Part shown: piece after piece, positions 6,336-56,142 of the stretch | Layout of the letters: each line of letters starts with the position of its first letter | How positions within the stretch are numbered: the first letter of the stretch is position 1 | Assembly (NCBI GenBank): GCA_008632985.1 | Contig: QPGO01000038.1 | Location: 273,939-337,938 of the forward strand | Length of the DNA: 64,000 nt | Direction of reading: 5' to 3' | Source: Psammoneis japonica | Lineage: Eukaryota | Position numbers and translations under genes: made by a program | The notes under the pieces: generated by a model | Database searches by the model: none | What the model was told of the DNA's origin: nothing | The model's input: the letters and a program-made list of their open reading frames with translations, nothing else

Positions 6336-9300
6336 CACGGTGCTAATCTCAGCGACATGGCATCGTAGAAATGTGTTCTTTGCGCCAGAGGCACACATTT
6401 GTGAATGATGTGTTTCGCTGGCAGCGCTGCCGACAGATTTCCCTTTTTTCCACACTTCACCGTGACAAAAAAAAAATGGTGAGTTGCCGTTGCTTTCGAC
6501 GATGTCGTTTGCCAGAAGTGATGAGTGCGAGTGTCATGTTTTGACAAACTGTTGCCAATCACCATCGATGCTGATGACATTGCCAAAAACATCACAATCA
6601 CACTCATCAGGAGACCGTTTTTGGACGATGCCACTGTTGGCACCGCTGCAAAGCAAAATGGTGCGTGCCGCTGCTGTTGATCATGTGGTTTGCCAAAAAC
6701 AACACACACGAGGACTGTGTTTTGATGCAACATTGGCATTCAATGTCAACACCAACTGCACATGTAAAAACACATTGCTCTCGCATTCATCAGGAGACTG
6801 TTTTGTGATGACCCTGCTGTCTGCTGTTGTCGCCGCGACACAAGTTTCAGAATGTTCCCTCGGCGAGTTAAAAGTCAGGGGTGCTCATTGCTTGTTCACT
6901 TTGGCTCTTGCAGCCAGCTCTCACAATGTCTCACAGATGCACAGGAATGGAAAAATGGTGTTCACGAAGTGCGTTGCCATTTGGTGGTGGCTTTGACGCA
7001 CCCAGACCAGTCCATCTTGTCATTTTTCAGCATGTCCACTCCACCAAGTCAACAGTTGAGAGTGCGCATTGCGCTTTCACTTTGGCCCTTCTGGTCATCT
7101 CTCATGTCATCTTGCAGACACATGTGAGTGCAAAAACAGTGTTCAGGGAACACATTTGGAGGCCCTCTGATGGTTTGTCCCATCTCTTCCATTTGCCGTC
7201 GGCAGTTTTTGGAAGGTTCGCTGCTTCAGTGCATCATTCCAGTTGCTCTCTTTGCACCCAATTGGCTTGACATTTGCTGCAAATGACACATCAACAATCT
7301 GCAAAAAACAACTGTGTTGCACTGGGTTTAGAAGTTCTTCAGATGGCAGGAGTGACTGACCACCCCCTGACCTTGACGACCAAGTGTGCCCAAAAATGCC
7401 AAGTTCCGGCCTCTCCTTGTGCCACCAAGGTTGCAAATTGTAGTGAGTCAAACATGCATCTCGTCACAACAATCCAAAACAATGTTGGATGCTCTGTTGC
7501 AACATTCTGCGCTGTTCCTGGCCCCACAAGCGACCGGCAACTGCCGACTGAGGACCAAAGCTTGAAACAAAAATGCTGTGTTCCGGCCTCTTGTTGCACC
7601 ACCAAGACCGCATGCTGCAATGACTCAAGCACACATCTTGTCATGATGACCCAAAGCAACACTGGATGCCCTGTCGCAGGTTTCTAAATTGTTTCTGGCC
7701 CCACAAGCAACCAGCAACTGGTGACCGGAGAAAATGAAAAGCCGCGCCATGTCCATCAAAATGCCAAGAAACACAAAACCTTTAGAAGATGCCAACAAAA
7801 CAACAACACCATCACACTCTGCACACTTGAATTGCCTTGTGACAATGCTGTTGACGCCAGAATGTTGTCCCAATGATGGCCGATTTGTGAACAGAGACAA
7901 GTTGCAGAGAAAACAAAAAACCACCCTGTCCATCTAAATGCCAAAGAAACACAAAACCTTCAGAAGACAACAACAAAAAACCAGCACAATCATGCTCATC
8001 ATGTTCGAATTGCCTTGAATCAATGCTCTTGACCCTGTGACATTTTCCCAGTGACGGTGCATTCATTGACGCCATGCCACCATGGCTGTTTCATTCTCAC
8101 CTTTTTCATGAGAGTCCAGACAGTTGTTGAGGTTGTGGGCCCAAACCACACTGCGTCACTTCATGCACAGAAAAAATGCACTGCACCACACTGTTTGATG
8201 ACCTGCCAACAATGCGGTCTTGGCGCGCCAAGAGGCTGGAACACAGCATTTTTGTTTCAAGCTTTGGTCCTTGGTCGGCAGTTGCAGCTCACTTGTGGGG
8301 CCAGGAATGGTGCAGAACATTGTGACAGTGCACCCAACATTGTTTTGGATTGTCATGACGAGATGCATGTTTGACTCATTCATCACAATTTGTGACCTTG
8401 GTGGCACAAGGAGAGGCCGGAACTTGGCATTTTTGGGCACACCATTTTTCCATTCCTGTGTGTCTGTGAGACATTGTGAGAGCCAACTGTGAGATCCAAA
8501 GTGAACAAGCAACAAGCACTCCTGACGTTCGACTCACCGAGGGAACATGCTGAGACTTGTGTCACGGTGACAACAGCAGACAGCAGGGTCATCACAAAAC
8601 GGTCTCCTGATGAATGCGAGAGAGCAATGTTTTTGCATGTGCAGTTGGTGTTGACATTGAACGCCAATGTTGCATCAAAACACAGTCCTCTTGCATGTTG
8701 TTTTCGGCAAACTGTGTGATCAACAGCAGCGGCACGCACCACCTTGCTTTGCAGCAGTGCCAACAGTGGCATCGTCCAAAAACGGTCTCCTGATGAGTGC
8801 GAGTGTGATGTTTTTAGCAGTGTCATCAGCATTGACAGTGATTGGCAACAATTTGTCAAAACATCACACTCGCACTCATCACTTCAGGCAAATGACATCA
8901 TCGAAAGCAACGGCGACTCACCATTTTTTTCATCACGGTGAAGTGTGGAAAAAAGGGAAATCTGTCGGCAGCGCTGCCAGCGAAACACATCATTCACAAA
9001 TGTGCGCCTCTGGCGCAAAGAACACATTTCTACGATGCCATGTCACTGAGATTGCTGCACCACACCGACAGTCTGTCAATGGTTGAGAAGTCTTTTTTCC
9101 GGATGACCTCGCAGACCCCATGACCCATGCTGTGTCGATCGAAAGCTCGCGACGAGCTGGACAAGGTCAAACGCATGTTGCATCGGTTGGAGTGAGCGGA
9201 AAGCGAATGTTTGTCGTTGAAAGTTTGGTTTTTGTTTGAGCAAAAATGACTGTTACAATCGCCTTTTTCCAATTGATTTTTGCTTTTATGTGCAATCCTT

Positions 9301-16892: not shown

Positions 16893-17789
16893 AGGCTTGC
16901 GACTTCTGCTGTCACAAGACTCATTGGCAGAGCCTTTTTTATCGAGAGACCTAGCCTGAAGCTACGCATCATTGTTTTCACTCATTCTTGCCACGCCACT
17001 CAGTTCTTACGATTCCGCAGAAGCTTCTTGGAGGACCGCACGAAAAGCATCTGGCAGCCGTTCCAGTTTCTGAAATTTTCCGGAGCAAAATTCAAGTTGT
17101 CTGCGTCATTTGGAATGTATCCTGGCGAGACGTCAGAATAAGTAGAGACGGATGGCGGGCATGGTTCATAATCTCAAGCATGCAGCCAATGGGCAAGAGA
17201 CTCGCCGTCAAATCGAGTCGCTCCTAAATAGTAGGGAAAGAAGGTCCAGCATTGAAAGAGAGGCACTCTACGGTAGCTAGGATGTGCTCCCCTTTAGATT
17301 TCTGACGGATGAATCACGCCGTGACTTCACAATATACTATTGAGGATTCTTCGCGTCCAAAAATCGATTCCACTCCCTTTCCCACGAACACCTGCCACAT
17401 ACCAAGTAAGCGTTTATTGCGAGAGAGCTGTGGCCAAGTTCTCGTTGGAGAAAATCATTTGACGTTCCTCGATTCAGAAAAGCACAAGGATCATCTTATC
17501 CAATTCAAGGAACTTGAGACGAGAATGATGTGAACAGCGGAGGGTGCGATAAACGATCACACACACCCCACCAGCATGCAGCACATGGAGTCGTACAGAA
17601 TTGAAAATGTAGCTGCGTGCAGTCGTGCACAATGTCACGAAGAAGGATAGTGACATTGTAGAGCCCATTAGATTGTATCACTGTGCGGTTAATGTTGTGT
17701 TCACATTCGTGCTAGATTGAAAGCCTGAATGATCTTTGTTGATGATCTGATCATTTACCCTGTTGCCCTTTGGACAAAAGGATGCCACT

Positions 17790-18190
17790 CATCTTGCTCT
17801 GCTCACCACACAGCAAACACATGCTCTTAGAGCCGGGGCGTGTTTTACAGACTTTGAACTGAGCTGCAACATTGACAGCTCATGATCTGTGGCACTCATC
17901 CAAGATGCCACTCAACCTTTGAGATTGAAGCAAGCAGCAAGATGTGGCAACTGCTGATGAGCTCAAAAGGAAAGAAGCAAGTGGAGTTTGGAGATCTCAG
18001 CTCTCCTGAGTGGTGTGGGGTTGAACCAACCAAAGTGCTTCTCTGCAGTGCCCCCCTCTGCAAAGCTGAGAAAGACACAAAGAGAGTCCATCAATGTCAG
18101 AATTTTTTGCCTGAGAAAGTGTGCAACAAGCCCCTGGGGAACAAGCAGCACCTTGTTGCACTTTGCAGCATTTGCCACAATGCAGTGACA
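17790..18190 (+). pseudogene. Hypermutated partial paralog of the downstream FG-GAP/ASPIC gene
   Basis: 'MICGTHPRCHSTFEIEASSKMWQLLMSSKG..FGDLSSPEW..HQCQNFLPEKVC..HLVALCSI' aligns with 'VICGTRPGRHGIFELEASKTWRPLKNSKG..FGDLNSPEY..HRCKSFLPKNVC..HHVALCSI' at ~20680-21015. Confidence 0.85.
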
Positions 18191-19548
18191 GCATGCACAC
18201 CAACAGCATGCTGACTGTTTGAGCAGCTGCTTGCCCGCGGACACGCCAGTCTCAAGAGCGGCAGCTTTGTCTGTTGTGTGCCACTGGTCTCTGGTTTCAT
18301 GTGCACCTGCTTGGCCAAGCAGGGCCATCTTGTGGCTCTGCTCTGAGAGTGCTTGTCCAAAAGAACTCTTGGGGTGACCTCACAAAAGGGTGGTGCAAGA
18401 AGGGAGATCTGCAGAGAGAAAGTGAAATTTGGAGCCAGAGAAGCAAGACACTGCTGCCTTGTGGCTTTTGCCATCACAAACAAGCTCTTCAGCCACAGGC
18501 ACACTCATCTGCACCAAGCCTTGTGAGCAGATGCACATGTGATGCTCAGCCATGAGCAACCAACTTTTCACCCAACAAAGTGTGGGCACGCGGGCAAGCT
18601 GGGGCAGAGACACAATCTTGAGCACATGTTGAAGCTTGGCAACCTTGCAGCTCAGCTGCAAATGGAAGCCAGCAATCTCTTCTCACAAAGCAGGTGCACA
18701 CTTCAACCTGGTCCACAGAGAGGGAAAGAGCCGAGCAAGAAGTTAATGGCACCTGTCACACCACACTGGCACAAGCAATGGCAGCCAGCACCCCCTTGTC
18801 AGAGACAAAAGTGTGTTTCTTTCACAAGATGAGAGCATGTTTTTTGCTTTCCAGCAGCTGCTGCTTTGTGCAGGAGCAAGGATTTTTGGTTTTGCTCCGC
18901 CCTCCCTGTCTGCCACCCAGCTGATGTTCTCACCCGCACCTGGCCTTTGTGACAAGCTTTCCTCTCGCACAAACACTTGTTTTCTTTCACTTCTTCCATG
19001 CAACATGTCCATTTTCAAGGTTTGCACGCAAGGCTTGTGATTCAGAGACAGCAACCGACTGCAAGGCTGCCAAAATGGTGCGAGACAGAGACAGCAAACA
19101 ATGTGCACAACCAGATCATTGTTCGAACAGACAGCACAGCAAGGCACGACAAACAATCTGTGCACAGCAAACTCAGATGTCCCAAAGAAGGAAATTGGCA
19201 TCGTTGTGGCCTAAGACATTTGCATTATGCCAGCAACGTTAAATGTTCTTTAACATTTATGCATTCCACTATTCATGGTTTTGATCTGATCAAACATCAA
19301 ACTGAGTGCGGCCATGCCACTGACACCAGATGACTATCCACTATGTGCCCTAGGCTAGACTATCGAGAACCTCCGCCGTGGAAAGAGAAGAGTACTTCAT
19401 GGACCTACAGTCTGTATTATCCGAATTCTGACAAGATGAACGATCGGATTCACATTCTCGTATTGTACGCTGAGATGAGAGGCAGTAAAGATCAAACCCA
19501 CTGATCACAGGACTGATACGCTGATCGTTTATACCCTGCCGAAGCATC

Positions 19549-21515
19549 ATGTTCACGCTGTTTCCAGGATACAACGAAACTCCCATGACAGAGCTTGCTT
19601 TGCAGATTCCAAGCTTCAATTGGGGGTCAGCCTTTGCTCCAGATTTTAACAATGACGGTGTTCTCGATTTGTATCATCATAACCACTTGAGGTTTCACTA
19701 CGCAAAGCGGAGGTGGTCAGATCCTAGCATATCCGCAGTGGGACCCAAGGATGGGGGATGTATGGTAGATTGGGATGCAGTTCTCCGAAACGACACCAGC
19801 GGGGCCTACTATGCTGTCAACATGGCAAAGGCTTTATCGAAACATCAGATGAAAAAGTGAGGAAGTGTTTTGATTCTCATTCTTCTGCATTTCTTGACAT
19901 AGATGGCGATGGCATCAAAGATTTTTTCCAAGTAACAGGAGGTGGACGGGGTAGAGGAAACTCTACAATATATGATAACATACTCTATTGGGGAGAAACT
20001 GACAGTTCAGAACTTGGCTTTCGTCTTGTCGGTGGCCGAGATGCTGCTATTGAAGCAGGATTGCATGGTCGAAACAGTAACGGGAACCAACGGGGACGCC
20101 ATCAGTATTGGTTTGACGCCGATGGCGATGGGTTCCTGGATGTCGTGACATTGAACACAGAACGAAAAGATGGCAAAGTTTCCCCGGGTTTGTTTTATCG
20201 AAACATCGACGGGCGGCGATTCACTGTTACTAGAAGTCAGTCTCGTAATTTTGAGGAATTTGCAAGCATTGCACTGTTGACAGATGTAGACGGTGACGGA
20301 TTTGCTAAAGAACTCGTGGTACCATCGCTATGCAGTATGGGAGCTCCCACGAATCCTGTTTGTAAAAAGTCACCAAGGCAAAGTCTTTCCGTCTACAAAT
20401 TCGATCGGGGGGCGGACAACTTGCTGCGACGGACTCTAACTCAAAAACCTCCTCGGGGAGTGAAGGAGTATGAAATAGCCAGAGGAATCGCAAGTGTAGA
20501 CGTCGACTTGGATGGTAAGCTTGACGTGGCTGTCCTCTGGGACAAAAGGGTAGACTTCTTTTTTTCGTCCAATCGCAACGAAAGGTGCATGGCACTATCG
20601 GATGACAAAGCAAAGCAGCTTTGTCTTTTGCACATGGGAGAAGCAGACATGCAGTTTAATTTGACAACCTTGTGCGGTGAACACGCTCATGGAGCCGGGA
20701 TACGTTTTGCAGATTTTGACCTGAATGGCAACATTGATATGCTCGTGATATGTGGTACTCGTCCAGGACGCCACGGGATCTTTGAGCTTGAAGCAAGCAA
20801 GACATGGCGACCGCTGAAGAATTCTAAAGGCGAACGAATGAACTTTGGCGACCTCAACTCTCCCGAGTATGGGATTGGACCAAAAGGTTTCTGCAACGGC
20901 ATCCCTACGACTACGAAAGATACAAGGAAAAGCCATCGGTGTAAAAGTTTTTTGCCCAAAAATGTGTGCAGGCCTCTGAGGTATAAGCACCACGTTGCAC
21001 TTTGCAGCATTTTCAAACATCAACGATACACTGTTCGAGCCGTTGCTCCCACAGTTGCCGATCTCGACAACGACAGCTTTAGTGACATCATTGTTGGGTA
21101 TCGATATGGGACCATGGTAATGCTACGGAATATGCTTGGTGACAGTGGGAACCGGAATAGGTTCCTTGCCGTTAGTGTCGATAGGAGAGCCGGGGCCGCT
21201 GCATCCATTGGCGCCATCGTGCAACTCTCAGCAAGGAGAATGGGGCATTACAAGAATGAGACCACAACGCAACTGCGTGTCGTAGCTACACTGAGCCATG
21301 AAACGGATTCGGATGGAGGAAGTGAGGACCGCATCATATTTGGTCTTGGAGTGTCGGGAGTGCCAACTAGGCTACGTGTACAGTGGCCTCATTGTTGCCG
21401 TCCGACCGTGATATGGCGAAGGCAGCTAGAACCTAATCTGAACTCGATGGATTCTCCTTTCGAAGTACCCCCGCCAGGTAAAGACTGCGACACAAGCTGC
21501 TTTCAGAACAAATAA
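19549..21515 (+). CDS. FG-GAP/VCBS-repeat protein with C-terminal ASPIC/UnbV domain (CRTAC1-like); one frameshift near 19830
   Basis: Repeated DxDxDG motifs (DFNNDGVLD, DIDGDGIKD, DADGDGFLD, DVDLDGKLD, DFDLNGNID, DLDNDSFSD) and 'AASIGAIVQL...RIIFGLG...LRVQWP'. The true start may lie further upstream. Confidence 0.85.
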
Positions 21516-26340: not shown

Positions 26341-27640
26341 ATGATCAAGAGTTCATTATTTGTTCACAGTACCATTGTCGCAATCCTCGTTCTCCCTTTC
26401 GTGGGAGTTGGGGCATTTTCATTTGGACCGCCATCTTCATTTTACAATGGACCAACATCCAGAATGTTTTCGCTTGGAGGTTTACATGCTGTACAAGGTG
26501 AAACAGAAGCGGACGTGGATTCAGAGCTGCTGGAGCAGATTCGGTCCATGCGCGTAAAGGAACTCAAGGTTGCGAGTTTCTACTGCCGATGTTTTTGAAA
26601 AGGATGAGCTGGTGAAGCGTCTTTATCAGGCCCGGAAAAAGAAAGGAAAGAGCTCTACAACGAATGCCAGCAGCAGTAGCAGACAGGATGACAGTAGTGT
26701 TGTCCGTGCGCCACTCTTCTTTGCCTCTGTGGATGTTGGTATGAATGTGGCGGCGGTAAACCGAGGTGGGCTGACAATTCAACCTGCAGCACAACCGTAT
26801 GCTGCCATACAAATTGAACTAAAAGGAGGCCTCTACAGTTTGACCTTGTTGTTAGACACGGCATGTTCTGGATTGGTGCTTAGACCATCAGTCGTGCGCT
26901 CGTACAACCTGCCAACAATGAAAACACCCGTTACAATGACGGCCGCCGGTGGTACCAATAGCAACACGGGTCTCACCCAAATCGATCGGTTTCTCTTTGG
27001 GAAAAATACGTTTGGCCCAGTCCCTGCGGCTGTCCAAGACATTGGCGCCCTCCCATCCTCTCTGGATGGAATCATGGGGCTCTCGTTTCTAAATCAGTTT
27101 GCATGTTTAGACTTGGATTTTCGAGATGGATCAGTTGCACTGTACAAGACAGAACGCCGACCATCCATCCCTGAAGGTCTTGATATTGTCGCAGAAGCGG
27201 AAATGAACCCCACTCGTCTTGCCGTTTACACTGTGGATGTCATGTTGGATGGTCGCGGACCCGTTAAGATGCTTGTGGATACCGGCGCATCATCATCCAT
27301 ACTGAACTGGAAGGGAGTTGCCGACCTTGGGTTGACAAGACAGTCACGTCAGGTTTCCAAGATAGACACGCCAATGGGAGCAATTGGCGTGGACAACGTT
27401 AGTATGGAACTCACACATCGATATGAAACAAAGCACTTTAACCTTGGTATATCATCCAGGCTACCTGGCTCTTCGATGAAAGGTGTAGGGCTACCTATCG
27501 ACATTGGCGATATCCCGGTGTTGGAGAATATGCGAGCTGATAATGTTGGAGGTATACTTGGAATTGATATGCTGATGCGTTTTGGGGTGGTGAGGATGGG
27601 GTTCAAAGGCCCGATTCCCAGGATTGTGCTATTAAATTAG
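26341..27640 (+). CDS. Plastid-targeted protein with two retropepsin-like aspartyl protease domains; frame break near 26570
   Basis: Signal peptide ending 'VGVGAF'; 'LLLDTACSG...DGIMGLSFL' and 'MLVDTGASSS...GGILGIDML'; 'MRVKELK' joins 'LRVSTADVFEKDELVKRL'. Confidence 0.85.
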
Positions 27641-33269: not shown

Positions 33270-35252
33270 ATGAACCTCCTGCTACGCGTATTTCACGGTA
33301 AGCAGAACCACGGCCGAATCGTCAGCGGTTTTCTTTGGGAACTTTGGATATTCTCGAGCGTTGCAATGGATGGGATCCGCTGCATGATTGAAGACCTGGC
33401 GTCCTTCATTGTAGGAGTCTGTACAGCTCTCCTCGCTTTATATGCTGTGATACTCTTGTGTCGCTTGTTGAAGTTGATTGTTGTTCATGTCAATTTCTTG
33501 TACCGCCGAATTATGGAAATTGACGACCTGTCGACTCTTCTTTGGGATCGAGCGTGCAATGCGGTTGCGGCTTTTCTTGCGGTTGCATTGGTTGTATGGA
33601 CCGTGTATTATGCCATCTGTGTTCCCTTGCAGTTTATATCCCCATGGCTGCTGCTCTTGAAATGCAAACTATTTGGTAGCGGTCGGGTTAGATGGAGACC
33701 GGACCGAATGTTGTTTCGAGACGTTTACGATGGAGACGCTCCTCCCATTCCTACCGGCGTGACTGCTCCAAGAATTCTCCGAATCCCTCGCTACACCCGT
33801 ACGATACCCGTATTGGATGATCAGAGATTGGCTGCAGTGCTGGTTGGGTTTGACCGGAAACAAGACCGATACATTCGTGAGTATCATACGGATCCAAGGT
33901 ATGATCACTGGCGTGGCTGGGTGCGGACTCCAGCGGCCATTGGACCCGCTGAGGCTACGGACAATAACACCATTGCTGACGATGCCTCGGATATTTTGGA
34001 CATGGAACCGGCTGAGGCGACGGACAACAATCTAAATGCTGTGGAGGAAGTAGTTCCTGATATTGTTGAAGAGCCTCGGGAAGCCTTGAACGAGCCTGCT
34101 GTGACTGTCGACGACGCGCCAGATGATGCGGAGGTGGGCGTTCCCATTGCTGTAGTAGAGGAACCTGTGGCTGAAGCCTTGGATGATCCTGCAGTGGACA
34201 TGGAAGATGCCACAATTGGTGGAGAGGCAATCATTCCAGCTGCTGACGCCATGAACGATCCTGCAATTGCTGCGTACGACGAAGAGGAAGTCGTTCTTGG
34301 AGCTGCAGCCGAGGAGCCAGACGATGCGTTGGACGTCCTGGATATGGCTGCTGACGACAATCCAGTGGTGGAGGAGGCTCTAGCTGTTCCTGTAGAAAAG
34401 CATGTAAGATGGAAACCCAACCGAATGATGACTCAAGACTTTCACGTTGGTGACATTCCTCCAGTCCCAACCCGTGTGTCTGCCAAACGCGTTCTTCGAC
34501 GCGCACGTTACACCCGTGTGATACCCGTGTTGAATGATGAGCAGTTGGCTGTGGCGATGCTTGAATTTGATGCGGGTCAAGAAGAAAGCATTCATCACTG
34601 GGAATCTGATCCTTGGTGTGATCACTGGCGTGGCTGGGTACGGACTCCAGCGGCCATTGGACCCGCTGAGGCTACGGACAATAACACCATTGCTGACGAT
34701 GCCTCGGATATTTTGGATGTGGAACCGGCTGAGGTGACGGACAACAATCTAAATGCTGTGGAGGAAGTAGTTCCTGACATTGTTGAAGAGCCTCGGGAAG
34801 CCTTGAACGAGCCTGCTGTGACTGTCGACGACGCGCCAGATGACGCGGAGGTGGGCGTTCCTATTGCTGTACTAGAGGAACCTGTGGCTCAAGCCTTGGA
34901 CGATCCTGCAGTGGACATGGAAGATGCCACAATTGGTGGAGAGGCAATCATTCCTGCTGCTGACGCCATGAACGATCCTGCAATTGCTGCGTACGACGAA
35001 GAGGAAGTCGTTCTTGGAGCTGCAGCCGAGGAGCCAGACGATGCGTTAGACTTTCTGGATATGGCTGCTGACGACAACCTACTGGAGGAGGAGGATGTTG
35101 TTCCTGTTGTTGCGAGAAGCAAGGAGAAAGAAGCCCGTCCTATCCCATTGAGACGCTCACCTAGGCTCCGTCAAGCCACTGGCAGTGTCTTTGTTTCGTC
35201 TAATTCTGGGCGAGTCATGCGTAGATCCGCAAGGATCATGAGTCGCCGCTAG
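33270..35252 (+). CDS. Membrane-anchored acidic repeat protein with a 239-aa internal duplication and basic RRSxR C-terminus
   Basis: Open 660-aa ORF with N-terminal hydrophobic helices; a 717-bp period (GATCACTGGCG at 33903 and 34620); tail PLRRSPRLRQATGSVFV...RRSARIMSRR. The real start may be downstream of 33270. Confidence 0.8.
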   Translation: MNLLLRVFHGKQNHGRIVSGFLWELWIFSSVAMDGIRCMIEDLASFIVGVCTALLALYAVILLCRLLKLIVVHVNFLYRRIMEIDDLSTLLWDRACNAVAAFLAVALVVWTVYYAICVPLQFISPWLLLLKCKLFGSGRVRWRPDRMLFRDVYDGDAPPIPTGVTAPRILRIPRYTRTIPVLDDQRLAAVLVGFDRKQDRYIREYHTDPRYDHWRGWVRTPAAIGPAEATDNNTIADDASDILDMEPAEATDNNLNAVEEVVPDIVEEPREALNEPAVTVDDAPDDAEVGVPIAVVEEPVAEALDDPAVDMEDATIGGEAIIPAADAMNDPAIAAYDEEEVVLGAAAEEPDDALDVLDMAADDNPVVEEALAVPVEKHVRWKPNRMMTQDFHVGDIPPVPTRVSAKRVLRRARYTRVIPVLNDEQLAVAMLEFDAGQEESIHHWESDPWCDHWRGWVRTPAAIGPAEATDNNTIADDASDILDVEPAEVTDNNLNAVEEVVPDIVEEPREALNEPAVTVDDAPDDAEVGVPIAVLEEPVAQALDDPAVDMEDATIGGEAIIPAADAMNDPAIAAYDEEEVVLGAAAEEPDDALDFLDMAADDNLLEEEDVVPVVARSKEKEARPIPLRRSPRLRQATGSVFVSSNSGRVMRRSARIMSRR

Positions 35253-49754: not shown

Positions 49755-50802
49755 ATGGCCGCAGCACCGTCAAGCGGACCTTTCAGTCTACAACAAACAC
49801 AAGGCTTACTATCACGCATTACACAAGAAGAAAACGTACAGCTGCTAAACGCAAAAGACTTGTCGCAGAAAGAAGAGAAACGCCGCAGCAGTATGACGGA
49901 CTTGTTGTCGCTCGACGTAGAAACTCCGCCTCGCGCAACAACACTGGATCCCAAAATTCTGGAAGCATTCGAAAGACTGGACAAGTGGAAGAACTGTCCC
50001 AATGCCCCTGAACGACTCGTATACAAGCACAATCGATCACGTGCAGCTTCAACGGGATTTCCAACCATACTTCAATCCGGCCTCAAGCTCGGGCTGACAG
50101 AACACGAGGTGGCTGCGGTTTTCGGATGGACGACGGGCGACTACAAAATCGTTAATCCTATTGCGTAAGTGGTTTTTTGTTTTTATATTACCATTGTCGC
50201 TGACATAACTGGTATTCCTCAGCTTGCCTGACTCGAAACTGTTTATGCACAGGCGCGGAGAAAGCCGTGTTGAGTTTGAAGACTACCCCTTTCTACCCAA
50301 TTCAATGGCCAAGGTCACGTGCCAATTGAGTCGTAAGGATGTAATGCCATATGTGGATGTGTTGAGCTCGGCGCTGCATAAACTGCCAGCCATGAAGGCA
50401 ACACGACAGATTTTATGGCGTGGGCACAGAAGACCGTTAGGACAGACTACCGTCGGCACTACGTTGGTTTTGAAGGGATTCAGCAGCGTATCGCGAGACC
50501 GAGACAATGCCTTGGGCTTTGCCGAGAAGGCAAACGAAGGGCGATCCAACAAACGAGCTCTTTTGGCAGTTGTGGAGCATGCAAGTAGCCGATGCCTCGC
50601 CAAGCTTAGCGCAAGAAAGAATGAGGTGGAAGTACTCTTTCCACGGGACACAACCTTTGAAGTCATTGAAGCGCCACAGGACAGAATTGAACAAGATCGA
50701 TTGGCCGTCCAAGAAGCTACGGAACGTCTCCGGAAAGTCATGCCAGATGCGGAGATTGAGCTCATCTATCTCAGAGAAGTAACGAATGACGACTGGTCCT
50801 AA
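49755..50802 (+). CDS. NAD:arginine ADP-ribosyltransferase (ARTC/R-S-E class), two exons
   Basis: WTTGDY..VN helix, LSSALHKLP, LWRG (R), GFSSVS (S), NEVEVLF (ExE); in-frame GT-AG intron 50165-50252. The start may extend upstream. Confidence 0.85.
50165..50252 (+). other. Spliceosomal intron in the ART gene
   Basis: GTAAGT...CTGAC...GCACAG; splicing joins NPIA|RGES in frame. Confidence 0.8.
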
Positions 50803-52695
50803 TACTTGCGCTTGCGCACCTCATGAGAGATGCAAGAGGGAAGGCTGAAGGACGAAATGCAGGAGTTGTTGTAGCACCGCATTGAGCTCCATGAGATTGC
50901 GCTACCGCTATTCGCTCCGAGATGCACGCTGTTTTGAAATTGAATTCTTCTTTTATCTAAGATGAATGACGCCGTCGCCGTCGAATATATTTGCCTCACC
51001 TCATACCGGAACCGAAGCCCCTACACGGTAGCTGAGATAGCTAGTAAACTCCGAGTTATACTCTCTGCCAACGACAGCTGTGGTCAGTCGTATCGAGTTG
51101 CTGCTTGACTGGAGAGTCTTCTGGTTTCTTGGCACTTGCCTATGAGAAAAAATGCATGTCACGTCTAACATGAATTTCAGTGCCGAATCTTTTGGCTGGG
51201 TCTTTTGAAGACTACTGGCTACCAGGACATTGGTAACACGTGTTCTTGCTATCGGATAATAGCCGTCTATGGAAAACTTGCCTCCTAACGAATGACGACT
51301 GGTCCTTACTATTGCACTTACGCACCTTCATCCTCGAGGAGAAGCGCGAGAGAAGGCTAAGGACGAAGTGCAGCCAGTTGTGGTAGCACCGCAGTTAGCT
51401 CCATGAGATTGTGCTACCACAATTCGTTTCGAGATGCACGGTGTTGTGATGGATGAATGACGCCGTTGCCGTCGAATATATCTTGCCTTGCCGCTTACCG
51501 GATCTTAGAAGCCGCTGCACCCGGGTACGTATACTGGCCACTGAGATAGCCGAGAATCCCGAGATACACTATGTGCCAACGACAACTGTGGTCACTCGTA
51601 TCGAATTGCTGCCAGACTGGAGTGAGTCTTCTGTTGTCAAGGTTGGCACTTGCTAGCGAGGAAGAATGCATGTCACAATGCAACTACCATATCTTCCAGG
51701 ACTTTGGCATAACTTGTTCTTGGTATCGAATGATACCCGTCTATCGAAAAAATGACGACTGGTCCCGATAGTTGCGCTTCCGCACCTTCATCCTCATGAG
51801 AGATGCACGAGAGCAGGCTGAAGGACGAAATGCAGGCCGTGATGGTGGTAGCACCTCATTGAGTTCCATGCGATTATGCTACCGCTATTCGTTTCAAGAT
51901 GCACGGTGTTGTGATCTTGAATCCTTTTTTCTAGATGAATGACGCCGTCGCCGCCTAATAGTTTTGCCTTGCCGCATCCCGGAACTTAGAAGCCGCTGCA
52001 CCGGTACGTATACTGGCCGCTGAGATAGCCAGAGAATCCCGAGATACACTATGTGCCAACGACAACTGTGGTCACTCGTATCGAATTGTTGCCAGACTGG
52101 AGTGAGTCTTCTGTTGTCAAGGTTGGCACTTGCTAGCGAGGAAGAATGCATGTCACAATGCAACTACCATACCGTATCTTCCAGGACTTTGGCATAACTT
52201 GTTCTTGGTATCGAATGATACCCATCTATCGAAAAAATGACGACTGGTCCCGACAGTTGCGCTTCCGCACCTTCATCCTCATGAGAGATGCACGAGAGCA
52301 GGCTGAAGGACGAAATGCAGGCCGTGATGGTGGTAGCACCTCATTCAGTTCCATGCGATTATGCTACCGCTATTCGTTTCAAGATGCACGGTGTTGTGAT
52401 ATTGAATCCTTTTTTCTAGATGAATGCGCTGTCGCCGTTGAATGCTTTTCCTTGCCGCGTGCCGGAGCCGAAGCCCTGCACCCCGGTACGCACACTGGCA
52501 GCTGAGACAGCCAGCGAATCCCGAGGCATGCTCTGTGCCACGGACACCTGTGGTGAGTCGTATCGAATTGCTTCCCGGCTGGAGTGAGTCTTCTGGTGTC
52601 GAGGTTGGCACTTGCTTGCGAGAAAGGATGCATGTCCCCTCAAACATGAATTCAACTGCCGATTCTTTTGGCTGTTTCTTTGATGACTGCTGGCT
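50781..52695. repeat. Tandem array, four units of ~460-506 bp
   Basis: AATGACGACTGGTCC at 50785, 51291, 51751 and 52236; shared internal blocks (GAGATGCACG, GATGAATGACGCCG, CGTATCGAATTG, TTGGCACTTGC). Confidence 0.95.
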
Positions 52696-53416
52696 AAACG
52701 CGTTCTTGGTATTATAGATGATATCAATCAATCGAGAATCCCCCCCCCCCCCCCCCATAGTTCCCACCTTGCGCTTTTTTCTCGAATGAGCGGATTTATG
52801 ATCATTTATTTGTGTCTCTCGAATGACCAGTCGCAGCATGCATGATTCACGTGAATAATGCAGAGTGAAGTGAGACTGACAAACTGGAGAGTTGCCTCTA
52901 TTTTCCACGCTCGGTATGGTATTTTCTTATTACCACTGTTGCACCATCTGGGCACTTTTGTAAAACATTAAGGCTGTTGTTGGTGTCAGCTCTAGCTCTA
53001 GTGATTAAACTGATCATTGCCATCTTCTCATATTTCGATCTACATCGTTTCTCTCTACTTGTAGAGAGCGAGACAATTCAAACATGTGGGATAAATAGAA
53101 TGTAAGCCGATGCAAGTACTGGTACATTAACATAGATGCCAACGTCAATAAAAACTCGTAGGGGTAGAACGTCTTTGAGTCTGCACTCATGCGCTTTGGC
53201 GCGGGAGTGTAATTTTGAATAATTGGATCTATTATATTCATTCATTAGGATTCAGAAATATTAATCCCGCGGCGGTGACACCTCGCACTGCAAATCCGAA
53301 CATTTGAGGCAACAAATCCGAACTTCGCTCATGCATGCATTGTCTCGCTCGTGCTATCATCACAACCCAAACTTCTCTCGCAGCAACATCATCAGTGTCC
53401 TCAACGTTCCGTCATC

Positions 53417-54164: not shown

Positions 54165-56142
54165 CTAGTCGATGGCGGTAATGTCACGCCCAAAGAGACG
54201 CGACTTGACCCAGTCAATGGCCACCAGAGCGCGATTCCTCATGGACGCTTGTTTCATCAAATACACGCTTCTCCATAGACCAAATCCAACCGTTCCAGTA
54301 GCCTTGACGCGTGTCTTTTCGTCTGGTGTTACTTGAACCTGTGCAAGTGCTGAAAACCCACCCGTATATGCCAAAATGCCCATGTCAAGGAACTGGAACG
54401 GTACCATGTACTCGTCCGTCTGGACGGCAAAGGAAGCAATCGCATCCATTAAGCTATTGGATTTCTCCGGATCTCGTTTGGGTGGTAACATAACACCCTC
54501 CTCACTGTACTCTGTATCAAGGTTGGCCTTTGACAAGACGTGGGCAAGGAACTCTCCTTCTTGAGCAGCGACTTGGGCGGTGCTCGGCAAGCAAGCCATT
54601 TGCGTACAGGCGCAGTCACCCAATGCAAAGATGCGGCCCTTGCCATTCACGGCTCGAAGCCACGGATCTACCGCGAGCTTTCCGCGAGCCTTTTCTTGGG
54701 CTTCAACTTGTCTCCCACCAATAGCCTCAATGATATCTAGTGTAATGGGCAAAGGTCCGATACCGCCGGCCCATACCGCCAAGCCATACGGTATTTTTGA
54801 GCCATCAGCAAGGTCAATGGTATCGGCGGTCACCTCTTTGACAGACTTGTTGATAATAAGTTCAGTCAACCCATCTGGGAACAAACTTTTGAGGGCTGGG
54901 TCCTTGATGTTGGTACCGCGAGTAAGCACATTAATGGCTGTTTCTCGCAAGCTCTCGTCAAAGGGCCTCAGAATTACTGGCGTTGCTTCAATAACCTTGA
55001 TTTGAGCGTCTTTGAGTAAATGGGGATAATACTTTGGACCGTCTTCTTCGATGAAGTCTCGAAGCTCGGCTGCAAATTCAATACCCGTTGGACCAGCACC
55101 AATCACGGCAAAGGTCAACAGCTTGCGACGCTCTTGTTCCGATTGACCTGGAAAATTCGCTCTTTCAAACAAACTGACAATCTTGCGCCGAATGTGCCTT
55201 GCATCATTAATCTGCTTCAAAAAGAGGCAGTGCTCTTCGACACCGGGAATACCAAATGTGTTGGTTTTCGCTCCGACCGCCACCACAAGCCGATCATACT
55301 TGACTTCAATGTCTGTAATCTCGCATTCCTCATCGCATTGAACCCCTTGGCAAGTTACAATTCGAGCCTCGGTATCGATAGAGGATGCGGCTGCCTCCAA
55401 GTAGTTGGCTTGTCGATTGAACTGAGAAAGAGAAGGGCAAAACGAACGTATGAAGTGAGCGCATCAACATTCTGGAAAATGCACCGTTATTCTTCATACG
55501 AATCAACGTACCTCTCGAATCGGTTGAGTAATACTCCGAACGTCCACAGTACCTACGCTAGCACCTGCGAGCATGGGAGTGAACAAAAAGTAGTTCCGTG
55601 GACTGATAACCGTCACGTCGTAGTGATCATTGTCGATCTCGCTCAATAAGGCAGCAGCTCCCCAGCCAGTGCCCAAAATAACCAATTTCTCTTTTGTCTC
55701 CGTGATTGCGCTGTTGACGGCAACTTTCTTAATCAACGGACTTGGAACTAGGTCCCCCAATACCTTGGCTGCCTTTTCCATAAGGAAGAGAGGATATGCA
55801 CGAGGCTTGGTGAGACGTCCTAGCTTTGCTTGGAGCTTCTCGTCCTGTACTTGGCATGCGTAGCTACAGCAATCGCCAGGACTCTTGCTCGGCAAACCTT
55901 GCAATACCCCGTGATCCTGGGCTTTGGCATTGACTATGTCGCGTTGTCCTGCTGCCTCCTCCACAGCTATGCGGGTGGGCTTTTCGCCAATGTAATAGCG
56001 GCACGTCTCTTTGATGCGCTGGCTGGGTGGCGTCGTTCTCCCCAACAAAAGTTCTTGGGCCAATGCCGGTGAATGACGAAGTCTCTCTCACCATGCAAGA
56101 GACTAGTGCAACGAATCCGATAATTCGTGTTGTTAGCTTCAT
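54165..56142 (-). CDS. NDH2: Type II (alternative) NAD(P)H dehydrogenase, probably plastid-targeted; intron 55422-55511, one frameshift in the N-terminal region
   Basis: LVILGTGWGA, ISPRNYFLFTPML, YDRLVVAVGA, FAVIGAGPTGIEFAAEL, IFALGDCA, LPSTAQVAAQEGEFLA, LWRSVYL..Q.S.RNR..V..DW....FGRD; signal ending 'ETSSF'. Confidence 0.93.

Follow-up and report, generated by a model that had tools for sequence, protein, structure and literature searches.

A decayed FG-GAP gene fragment within a TpA-erased, CpG-poor island beside its working paralogue in the diatom Psammoneis japonica

The working gene, the fragment and the island

The 64,000 bp stretch of Psammoneis japonica DNA analyzed here (called the window below; assembly GCA_008632985.1, contig QPGO01000038.1, forward strand positions 273,939 to 337,938, with positions in the text counted from its first base) contains a single-exon FG-GAP gene and, 1.3 kb from it, a decayed copy of part of that gene that lies in an island of DNA from which the dinucleotide TpA (TA below) is nearly erased and CpG (CG) is strongly depleted. 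This arrangement, a host-gene fragment inside a TA-erased island, is what is specific to the locus. An initial annotation had described the two as an intact gene and its hypermutated neighboring copy, had contrasted them with the products of repeat-induced point mutation (RIP), and had inferred that host-gene duplicates are asymmetric targets of hypermutation. The features are as follows (o/e is the observed over expected dinucleotide frequency; A1 and P0001 are the alignment and the ortholog described below):

19549 to 21515, + strand: functional single-exon FG-GAP (CRTAC1/ASPIC-like) gene, not hypermutated (Pfam, ortholog P0001)
20500 to 21090, + strand: segment of this gene with homology to the fragment (blastn, alignment A1, three-way codon comparison)
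17729 to 18275 (roughly; ~550 bases), + strand: pseudogene fragment of the neighboring FG-GAP/CRTAC1-like gene (blastn, alignment A1)
17757 to 19211, no strand: TA-erased, CpG-poor island of 1,455 bases (TA o/e 0.03, CG o/e 0.19)
18276 to 19211, no strand: rest of the island beyond the homology, 936 bases with 1 TA and no match in the searches described below
19212 to 19548, no strand: TA-normal spacer with 21 TA (TA o/e 0.79, CG o/e 0.82), presumed from its position alone to be the promoter

The gene product matches the Pfam families FG-GAP_3 (E 1.2e-15) and FG-GAP (E 2.8e-8), has 277 relatives at E<=0.001 in a representative protein library, and shares 49% identity, across 94% of the query, with its ortholog P0001, whose N-terminus matches the residues MFTLFPGY encoded at 19549. 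A C-terminal UnbV_ASPIC domain is not listed for it by Pfam at E<=0.001; its relative P0002 carries a precomputed PF07593, as do 84-100% of the members of the nearest Atlas clusters (score 0.96). The gene begins 338 bases beyond the right edge of the island and retains 78 TA (TA o/e 0.59, CG o/e 0.90). The reading frame in the window carries a 1-base frameshift at 19822 (within 19815-19830, AAC-AT-GGC where the ortholog has Asn-Asp-Gly), but the frame is recovered, as Asn-Ile-Gly, by one more T after 19822 in a 2,039-base contig from the public run X1, which comes from one sample, may be the source of the assembly itself and so cannot count as a separate line of evidence on the organism. The frameshift probably reflects an indel error in the assembly or variation between strains and, because the frame is restored in the X1 contig, the gene can be taken as intact; its earlier description as intact is thus correct for the X1 contig and not for the window as assembled.

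When 17500-19400 is used as the query, the sole non-self blastn match in the window is that of 17819-18173 to 20681-21012 (71.6% identity over 356 columns, E 8.3e-41). The core of a MAFFT alignment (A1) pairs copy positions 17821-18260 with gene positions 20683-21072 in 389 ungapped columns, of which 284 are identical and 105 differ by 74 transitions and 31 transversions. All eight sequence pairs quoted in the initial annotation are present in A1 (gene/copy): GGTACT/GGCACT, AAGATACA/AAGACACA, TTGATA/TTGACA, CTCGTG/CTCATG, CTCGTC/CTCATC, GACGCC/GATGCC, GGCGA/GGCAA and CCGCTG/CTGCTG.

The fragment corresponds to about residues 268-455 of the open reading frame (ORF) at 19728-21512. A hidden Markov model of the family, run on the six frames of 17300-19500, matches at profile positions 315-407 alone; it detects there neither the FG-GAP repeats of the N-terminus nor the conserved C-terminal region. 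The start of the fragment, at 17729-17741, was placed by a translation match made by eye (YPVALWTKG against DVAVLWDKR) together with a 5-residue tblastx match; also by eye, about 90 gene bases between the matches at 20530-20556 and 20680 are missing from the fragment. Its translation requires two frame changes, near 17790 and 17875, to follow that of the gene, and its TGA at 18220 faces a CGA at 21036 in the gene, a CpG>TpG change. The two copies are therefore related as had been proposed, but the second is a frameshifted ~550-base fragment and not a gene duplicate.

Three TA remain in the island (at 17828, 17846 and 18744) where 56 are expected from the o/e of the neighboring DNA (Poisson 1e-20), and its CG number 18, against an expectation of 88 from the neighboring TA-normal DNA (Poisson 1e-19); CA and TG are in excess (o/e 1.75 and 1.82). 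Its boundaries are set by the nearest flanking TA, at 17756 on the left and 19212 on the right, beyond which TA o/e is 0.50 and 0.79, respectively. The right edge is sharp: 468 bases without a TA are followed by 6 TA in the 59 bases from 19212. The left edge is slightly graded (TA at 17756, 17828 and 17846) and falls within the first 120 bases of the fragment. Erasure is equally strong in the part that is homologous to the gene (2 TA in 519 bases) and in the rest (1 TA in 936 bases). The ratio (CA+TG)/(2xTA) of 54 would mean, if the island is at or before equilibrium, that TpA is lost at least about 50 times faster than it is restored by back-mutation.

A third of the island is thus derived from a host gene, and the remainder has no matches. 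A transition-tolerant Smith-Waterman comparison of 18276-19211 with the gene and the whole window gave scores that did not improve on those of shuffled sequence (best 39, shuffle maximum 36); no homology to this part was found by tblastx or by the family hidden Markov model on six frames, Pfam searches of 17 ORFs at E<=1 gave nothing below E 0.1, and neither an Rfam family nor a look-alike in an index of scanned stretches was found. These 936 bases also lack transposon domains and terminal repeats, and they do not resemble the islands elsewhere in the window.

The island also has low AT (o/e 0.58) and high GC (o/e 1.43), which are probably by-products of the changes ATA>ACA, TAT>TGT, GTA>GCA and TAC>TGC. 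Eighteen ORFs of >=50 residues overlap about 1 kb of it. DNA that is free of TA has no TAA or TAG stops and so accumulates long spurious ORFs in all six frames, and gene finders could be misled by such stop-poor sequence during annotation. A 35-base direct repeat (74%) is present at 17632-17666 and 19177-19211; the right unit ends exactly at the right edge of the island, the left unit lies about 90 bases outside it, and TGATCTGATCA follows both units at similar spacing. This repeat with TGATCTGATCA was considered as a possible flanking duplication, but the alignment between the units is poor and it was taken as chance.

Contigs from the X1 run span the island, so the island is not an artefact of this assembly. 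Summed X1 contig depth is 48-92 over the island compared with 55 over the gene, and across the island the run is represented by two haplotype contigs, each at about half depth. Nineteen sites at which these haplotypes differ were listed, and 13 more lie across the whole compared stretch. Three of the 19 are TA/CA differences (18383, 18744 and 19108), from which it follows that at least some changes of this type are younger than the separation of the haplotypes. The haplotypes also differ as CG versus TG or CA at 18538, 18592, 18898 and possibly 18437; several other differences are transversions, and so few sites do not allow a rate to be estimated. Elsewhere, X1 has small indels relative to the window (e.g., 7 bases after 19434 and 3 after 19529), and its contigs depart from the window into dissimilar sequence at 19302/19310 and match it again from 19426, which suggests a structural difference between X1 and the window upstream of the gene.

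Dinucleotide fates and the other duplicated loci

The fates of gene dinucleotides in the copy were counted in A1. None of the 13 gene TA is kept; they face 6 CA, 2 TG, 1 CG, 2 TC and 2 AA, so that CA, TG or CG stands opposite 9 of the 13. Only 2 of the 23 gene CG are kept, and 15 face TG (7) or CA (8). By comparison, 197 of the 341 other dinucleotides are kept (Fisher p 1.9e-5 for TA loss and 3.1e-6 for CG loss). Expressed as transitions, 10 of 26 A/T sites inside TpA have changed compared with 31 of 174 other A/T sites (p 0.034), and 17 of 46 C/G sites inside CpG compared with 16 of 143 others (p 0.0002). TA loss in the copy thus exceeds other transitions, the comparison on which the initial annotation had staked its proposal, although the excess is modest. 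Both strands of the copy are affected (7 TA>CA and 3 TA>TG). Its earlier description as the only copy hit is borne out by composition, since the part of the fragment inside the island (17757-18275) has 2 TA (TA o/e 0.06) and the gene has the normal values given above. What had originally been observed at this locus, that is, the homology, the examples and the dinucleotide fates, is accordingly confirmed.

The pair is nevertheless old and noisy. As the initial annotation had cautioned, the two sequences differ at many ordinary sites: 78 of the 105 differences carry no signature, so three quarters of them are ordinary divergence. This makes the gene a poor "before" state and the locus of limited use as a before/after pair. 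These 78 differences are spread evenly over codon positions (22/28/28, chi-square p 0.62), as fits neutral decay. Seven of the 12 indels in the gene-copy alignment are multiples of three, and the copy was therefore considered as an old functional paralogue; this was rejected on the same even spread.

The proposed comparison with an outgroup was made at the protein level with P0001, the sole one of 152 family proteins that spans the whole homologous segment (E 2e-35); a search for a nucleotide outgroup among metagenome contigs returned distant relatives alone (5 loci at 22-38% identity). In the 129 codons compared, gene, copy and P0001 are identical at 24, gene and copy share a state that P0001 lacks at 42, the change is on the copy branch at 20 and on the gene branch at 5, all three differ at 36, and 2 are gapped. 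The 42 shared derived states make gene and copy sisters relative to P0001, and the copy has evolved about four times faster than the gene (20 versus 5 codons). Four CpG changes (gene positions 20703, 20808, 21059 and 21065) and two TpA changes (20701 and 20984) are assigned to the copy branch, as is one TA loss by transversion (20982). Polarization therefore agrees with the proposed direction at these six CpG and TpA sites, and one further site, 21027, points the opposite way (below).

The locus is part of a window-wide pattern. TA o/e is below 0.25 in 58 of 128 intervals of 500 bases, where CA and TG are near 1.8 and CG is usually depleted, and it is around 0.5-0.9 with normal CG in the remaining intervals, so composition is bimodal. 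The TA-free block at 56-64 kb contains remnants of copia-type RVT_2 and gag-pre-integrase domains. Are duplicated sequences in general affected? Self-blastn of the window gave 13 pairs of >=150 bases. Six are TA-free in both partners, all of them within TA-free blocks, and six, which represent four loci (150-1,436 bases, 73-87% identity), are TA-normal in both partners; the FG-GAP pair alone is discordant.

Among the TA-normal loci, the units of a 707-base tandem duplication (33687-34393 and 34404-35107, 86.7%) are both TA-normal and differ at 91 sites, 46 by transition and 45 by transversion. An array at 50780-52696, with matches of up to 1,436 bases at 79.8%, is likewise TA-normal and not hypermutated. 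Within TA-free DNA, the arms of a 615-base inverted repeat (6345-6961 and 8439-9053, 91% identity) differ by changes of which 32 of 50 are of the signature type: CA versus TG at 8 dinucleotides (16 sites), CG versus TG or CA at 14 and TA versus CA at 2. Because CA in one arm opposite TG in the other points to one ancestral TA or CG, both arms were mutated independently after the duplication.

The tandem duplication at 33687-35107 lies within a 667-residue ORF that has no Pfam family. The array is built of roughly 480-base tandem units (73-80% by blastn; two units are identical at 389 of 397 positions) and is just downstream of an ORF (50209-50799) with a weak ADP-ribosyltransferase domain match.

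Targeting by location or by duplication

The fragment differs from its paralogue both in being the decayed member of a duplicated pair and in lying within the island, but which of these accounts for its state? Taking together what is directly seen (the homology, the dinucleotide fates, the extent and edges of the island and the other duplicates left untouched), we think that it was probably mutated because it lies in the island and not because it is a duplicate, by a regional mutator acting with CpG decay. An old partial duplication of the neighboring FG-GAP gene would have left a ~550-base relic inside the island, and the mutator would turn TpA into CpA or TpG (A:T>G:C at TpA) and work together with CpG decay within sharply bounded islands; the working gene would lie outside the targeted domain, 338 bases from its right edge. 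Targeting may follow a chromatin or methylation state that is marked by CpG decay, and the chemistry may be adenine deamination in DNA. The initial annotation was right that sequence derived from a host gene bears the TA>CA/TG and CG>CA/TG signature and that the functional paralogue 1.3 kb away does not. Its inference that host-gene duplicates as such are targeted, asymmetrically, is not supported: the island passes the homology by 936 bases at equal intensity, and the four duplicated loci untouched in both partners together with the six in-island pairs mutated in both imply that duplication is not the trigger.

Several observations weigh against targeting by location and regional mutation. 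The pairwise signal is weak, as just 27 of the 105 gene-copy differences are of the TA/CG>CA/TG type; non-TpA contexts are common among the A>G changes (14 of 60 after A, 12 of 49 after G and 9 of 25 after T), and A:T>G:C changes outside TpA (31) outnumber those within it (10). The gene codon TAC at 21027 faces CAT in the copy and His in the outgroup, so a TA was apparently gained there on the gene branch. The left edges of the homology and of the island agree within about 30-120 bases, as a target defined by the duplicate also predicts, and the gene's own homologous segment (20530-21090) has 17 TA in 561 bases, a TA o/e of 0.44 compared with 0.66 in the remainder of the gene (binomial p 0.17), a dip that is not significant and only hints at a weak homology-linked effect. 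Selection could be what keeps the untouched duplicates TA-normal, since they are probably coding. Finally, the 936 non-homologous bases match nothing, so they give no sign of a transposon relic or of any cause of targeting.

Three other explanations deserve consideration. RIP, a premeiotic process of Neurospora and other fungi that requires the enzyme RID, is triggered by duplication, mutates both partners and makes TpA from CpA by C:G>T:A changes. The island resembles its products in being regional hypermutation with a dinucleotide context in which non-genic or repeated DNA is ruined and nearby genes stay intact, and in that both partners are mutated where both lie in islands; it differs in that the direction is opposite (TA is destroyed rather than made), in that one FG-GAP partner is untouched and in that 6 of the 13 duplicate pairs (the four loci) are TA-normal in both partners. 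The contrast that the initial annotation drew with RIP in the fate of the partners is thus real, but targeting restricted to a domain accounts for it more simply than an asymmetric sensing of duplicates. A RIP-like sensing could also have mutated both FG-GAP partners, with purifying selection then clearing the working gene, and we consider this unlikely. The only host-derived sequence identified in the islands of the window is indeed a duplicate, the coincident left edges and the lower TA of the gene's homologous segment are what such sensing would leave, and many diatoms encode DNMT4, a relative of RID whose function is unknown (PMC9998398). Yet the island continues at full intensity for 936 bases past the homology, the four TA-normal loci are duplicates that went unmutated in both partners, 17 TA survive in the gene's homologous segment with a dip that is not significant, and one target of the comparable process in the alga Bigelowiella natans (below) is single-copy.

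Alternatively, the 936 bases could be a relic of a transposon that was the true target, from which mutation spread a few hundred bases into an unselected gene fragment. Retroelement remnants are present in other islands of the window, and the graded left and sharp right edges fit spreading; the 936 bases have no transposon domain, terminal repeats or likeness to those islands, however, the X1 depth over the island gives no suggestion of a multi-copy repeat, and the fragment is erased as fully as the rest, without the gradient expected from spreading. Such spill-over is doubtful. Could the signature instead predate the DNA copy, having been made by A-to-I editing of an RNA (ADAR-like, with a 5' U preference) before a retrocopy integrated? 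A>G changes are in proportion commonest after a 5' T, and ADAR favours U upstream of the edited A, as noted in a preprint (bioRxiv 10.64898/2026.01.13.699255), but both strands are changed, CpG decay goes along with TA loss, the pattern is present in 58 of the 128 intervals, including the inverted pair whose arms were mutated independently, the TA/CA differences between the X1 haplotypes record change after integration, and a copy 1.3 kb from its parent fits local duplication. We regard an edited retrocopy as very improbable.

The only published analogue of regional mutation at TpA that was found is in that same preprint, by Mettrop et al., on TpA hypermutation of integrated viral DNA in B. 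natans (bioRxiv 10.64898/2026.01.13.699255). Of the 231 mutations found in two integrated viral regions of mutation-accumulation lines, 230 were A>G or T>C, changes that according to the authors fall on TpA. The rate was roughly 1,000-fold that of the background, and the enzyme put forward was an ADAT2-like adenine deaminase. The two cases share A:T>G:C changes at TpA that give TpG or CpA, bounded affected regions with normal neighboring genes, TpA depletion with CpA and TpG enrichment as the long-term mark, and targets that need not be repeated; TpA-poor clusters in B. natans hold some host-like genes. They differ in that B. natans is a rhizarian alga and P. japonica a diatom, of a different supergroup lineage, and in that the mutation rate comes from direct measurement there, whereas here it is deduced from composition. 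Rho TpA is 0.45 in the viral region, whereas erasure is near-total here (o/e 0.03); CpG loss is coupled to it here, whereas none is described in the B. natans passages; and the targets are viral there, whereas here they are a host pseudogene fragment with unmatched DNA, to which retroelement remnants are added in other parts of the window. The island has the composition of the long-term end state of a process of the B. natans type, in a far more complete form.

The CpG side of the pattern has its own parallel. Diatom transposons are CpG-methylated via DNMT5a, in the same source that reports the RID-related DNMT4 of many diatoms (PMC9998398). The low CG of the island with its excess of TG and CA, and the 15 of 23 gene CG that became TG or CA in the copy, are like the decay of methylated transposons, but CpG decay alone cannot remove TA. 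As far as that source goes, these diatom methyltransferases make it plausible, by analogy, that the target is defined by methylation or chromatin.

It seems to us an evenly balanced question whether P. japonica possesses a mutator that acts on DNA, makes A:T>G:C changes specifically at TpA (plausibly as an adenine deaminase) and is directed to methylated or silenced domains and not to repeats as such. If it does, stramenopiles would be a second, independent lineage with a process so far reported in a rhizarian alga alone, here coupled to CpG decay; full-text searches of the literature showed no description of TpA erasure in diatoms. Such a mutator would have edges defined to about 100 bases, would outpace back-mutation by a factor of at least about 50 and could erode whatever unselected DNA lies in its domain, host relics included. 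The locus would then constrain how a TpA-erasing process chooses its targets, in that duplication alone is no trigger, the process ends 338 bases before a working gene's start codon, and a host-derived relic is treated like transposon DNA. These three properties together would point to a chromatin or methylation cue.

Other open reading frames of the window

Two further ORFs lie in the window. One (26558-27637, 360 residues) has retroviral-type aspartyl protease domains (Asp_protease_2 and gag-asp_proteas) in TA-normal DNA; it is a DDI-like gene of the host or else an element that has not been mutated. The other, at 54168-55463 on the - strand, encodes an NDH2-type protein whose best match is at 74%; its named best matches, at up to 61% identity, are all from diatoms (Bacillariaceae sp., Seminavis robusta, Fistulifera solaris, Odontella aurita and Epithemia).

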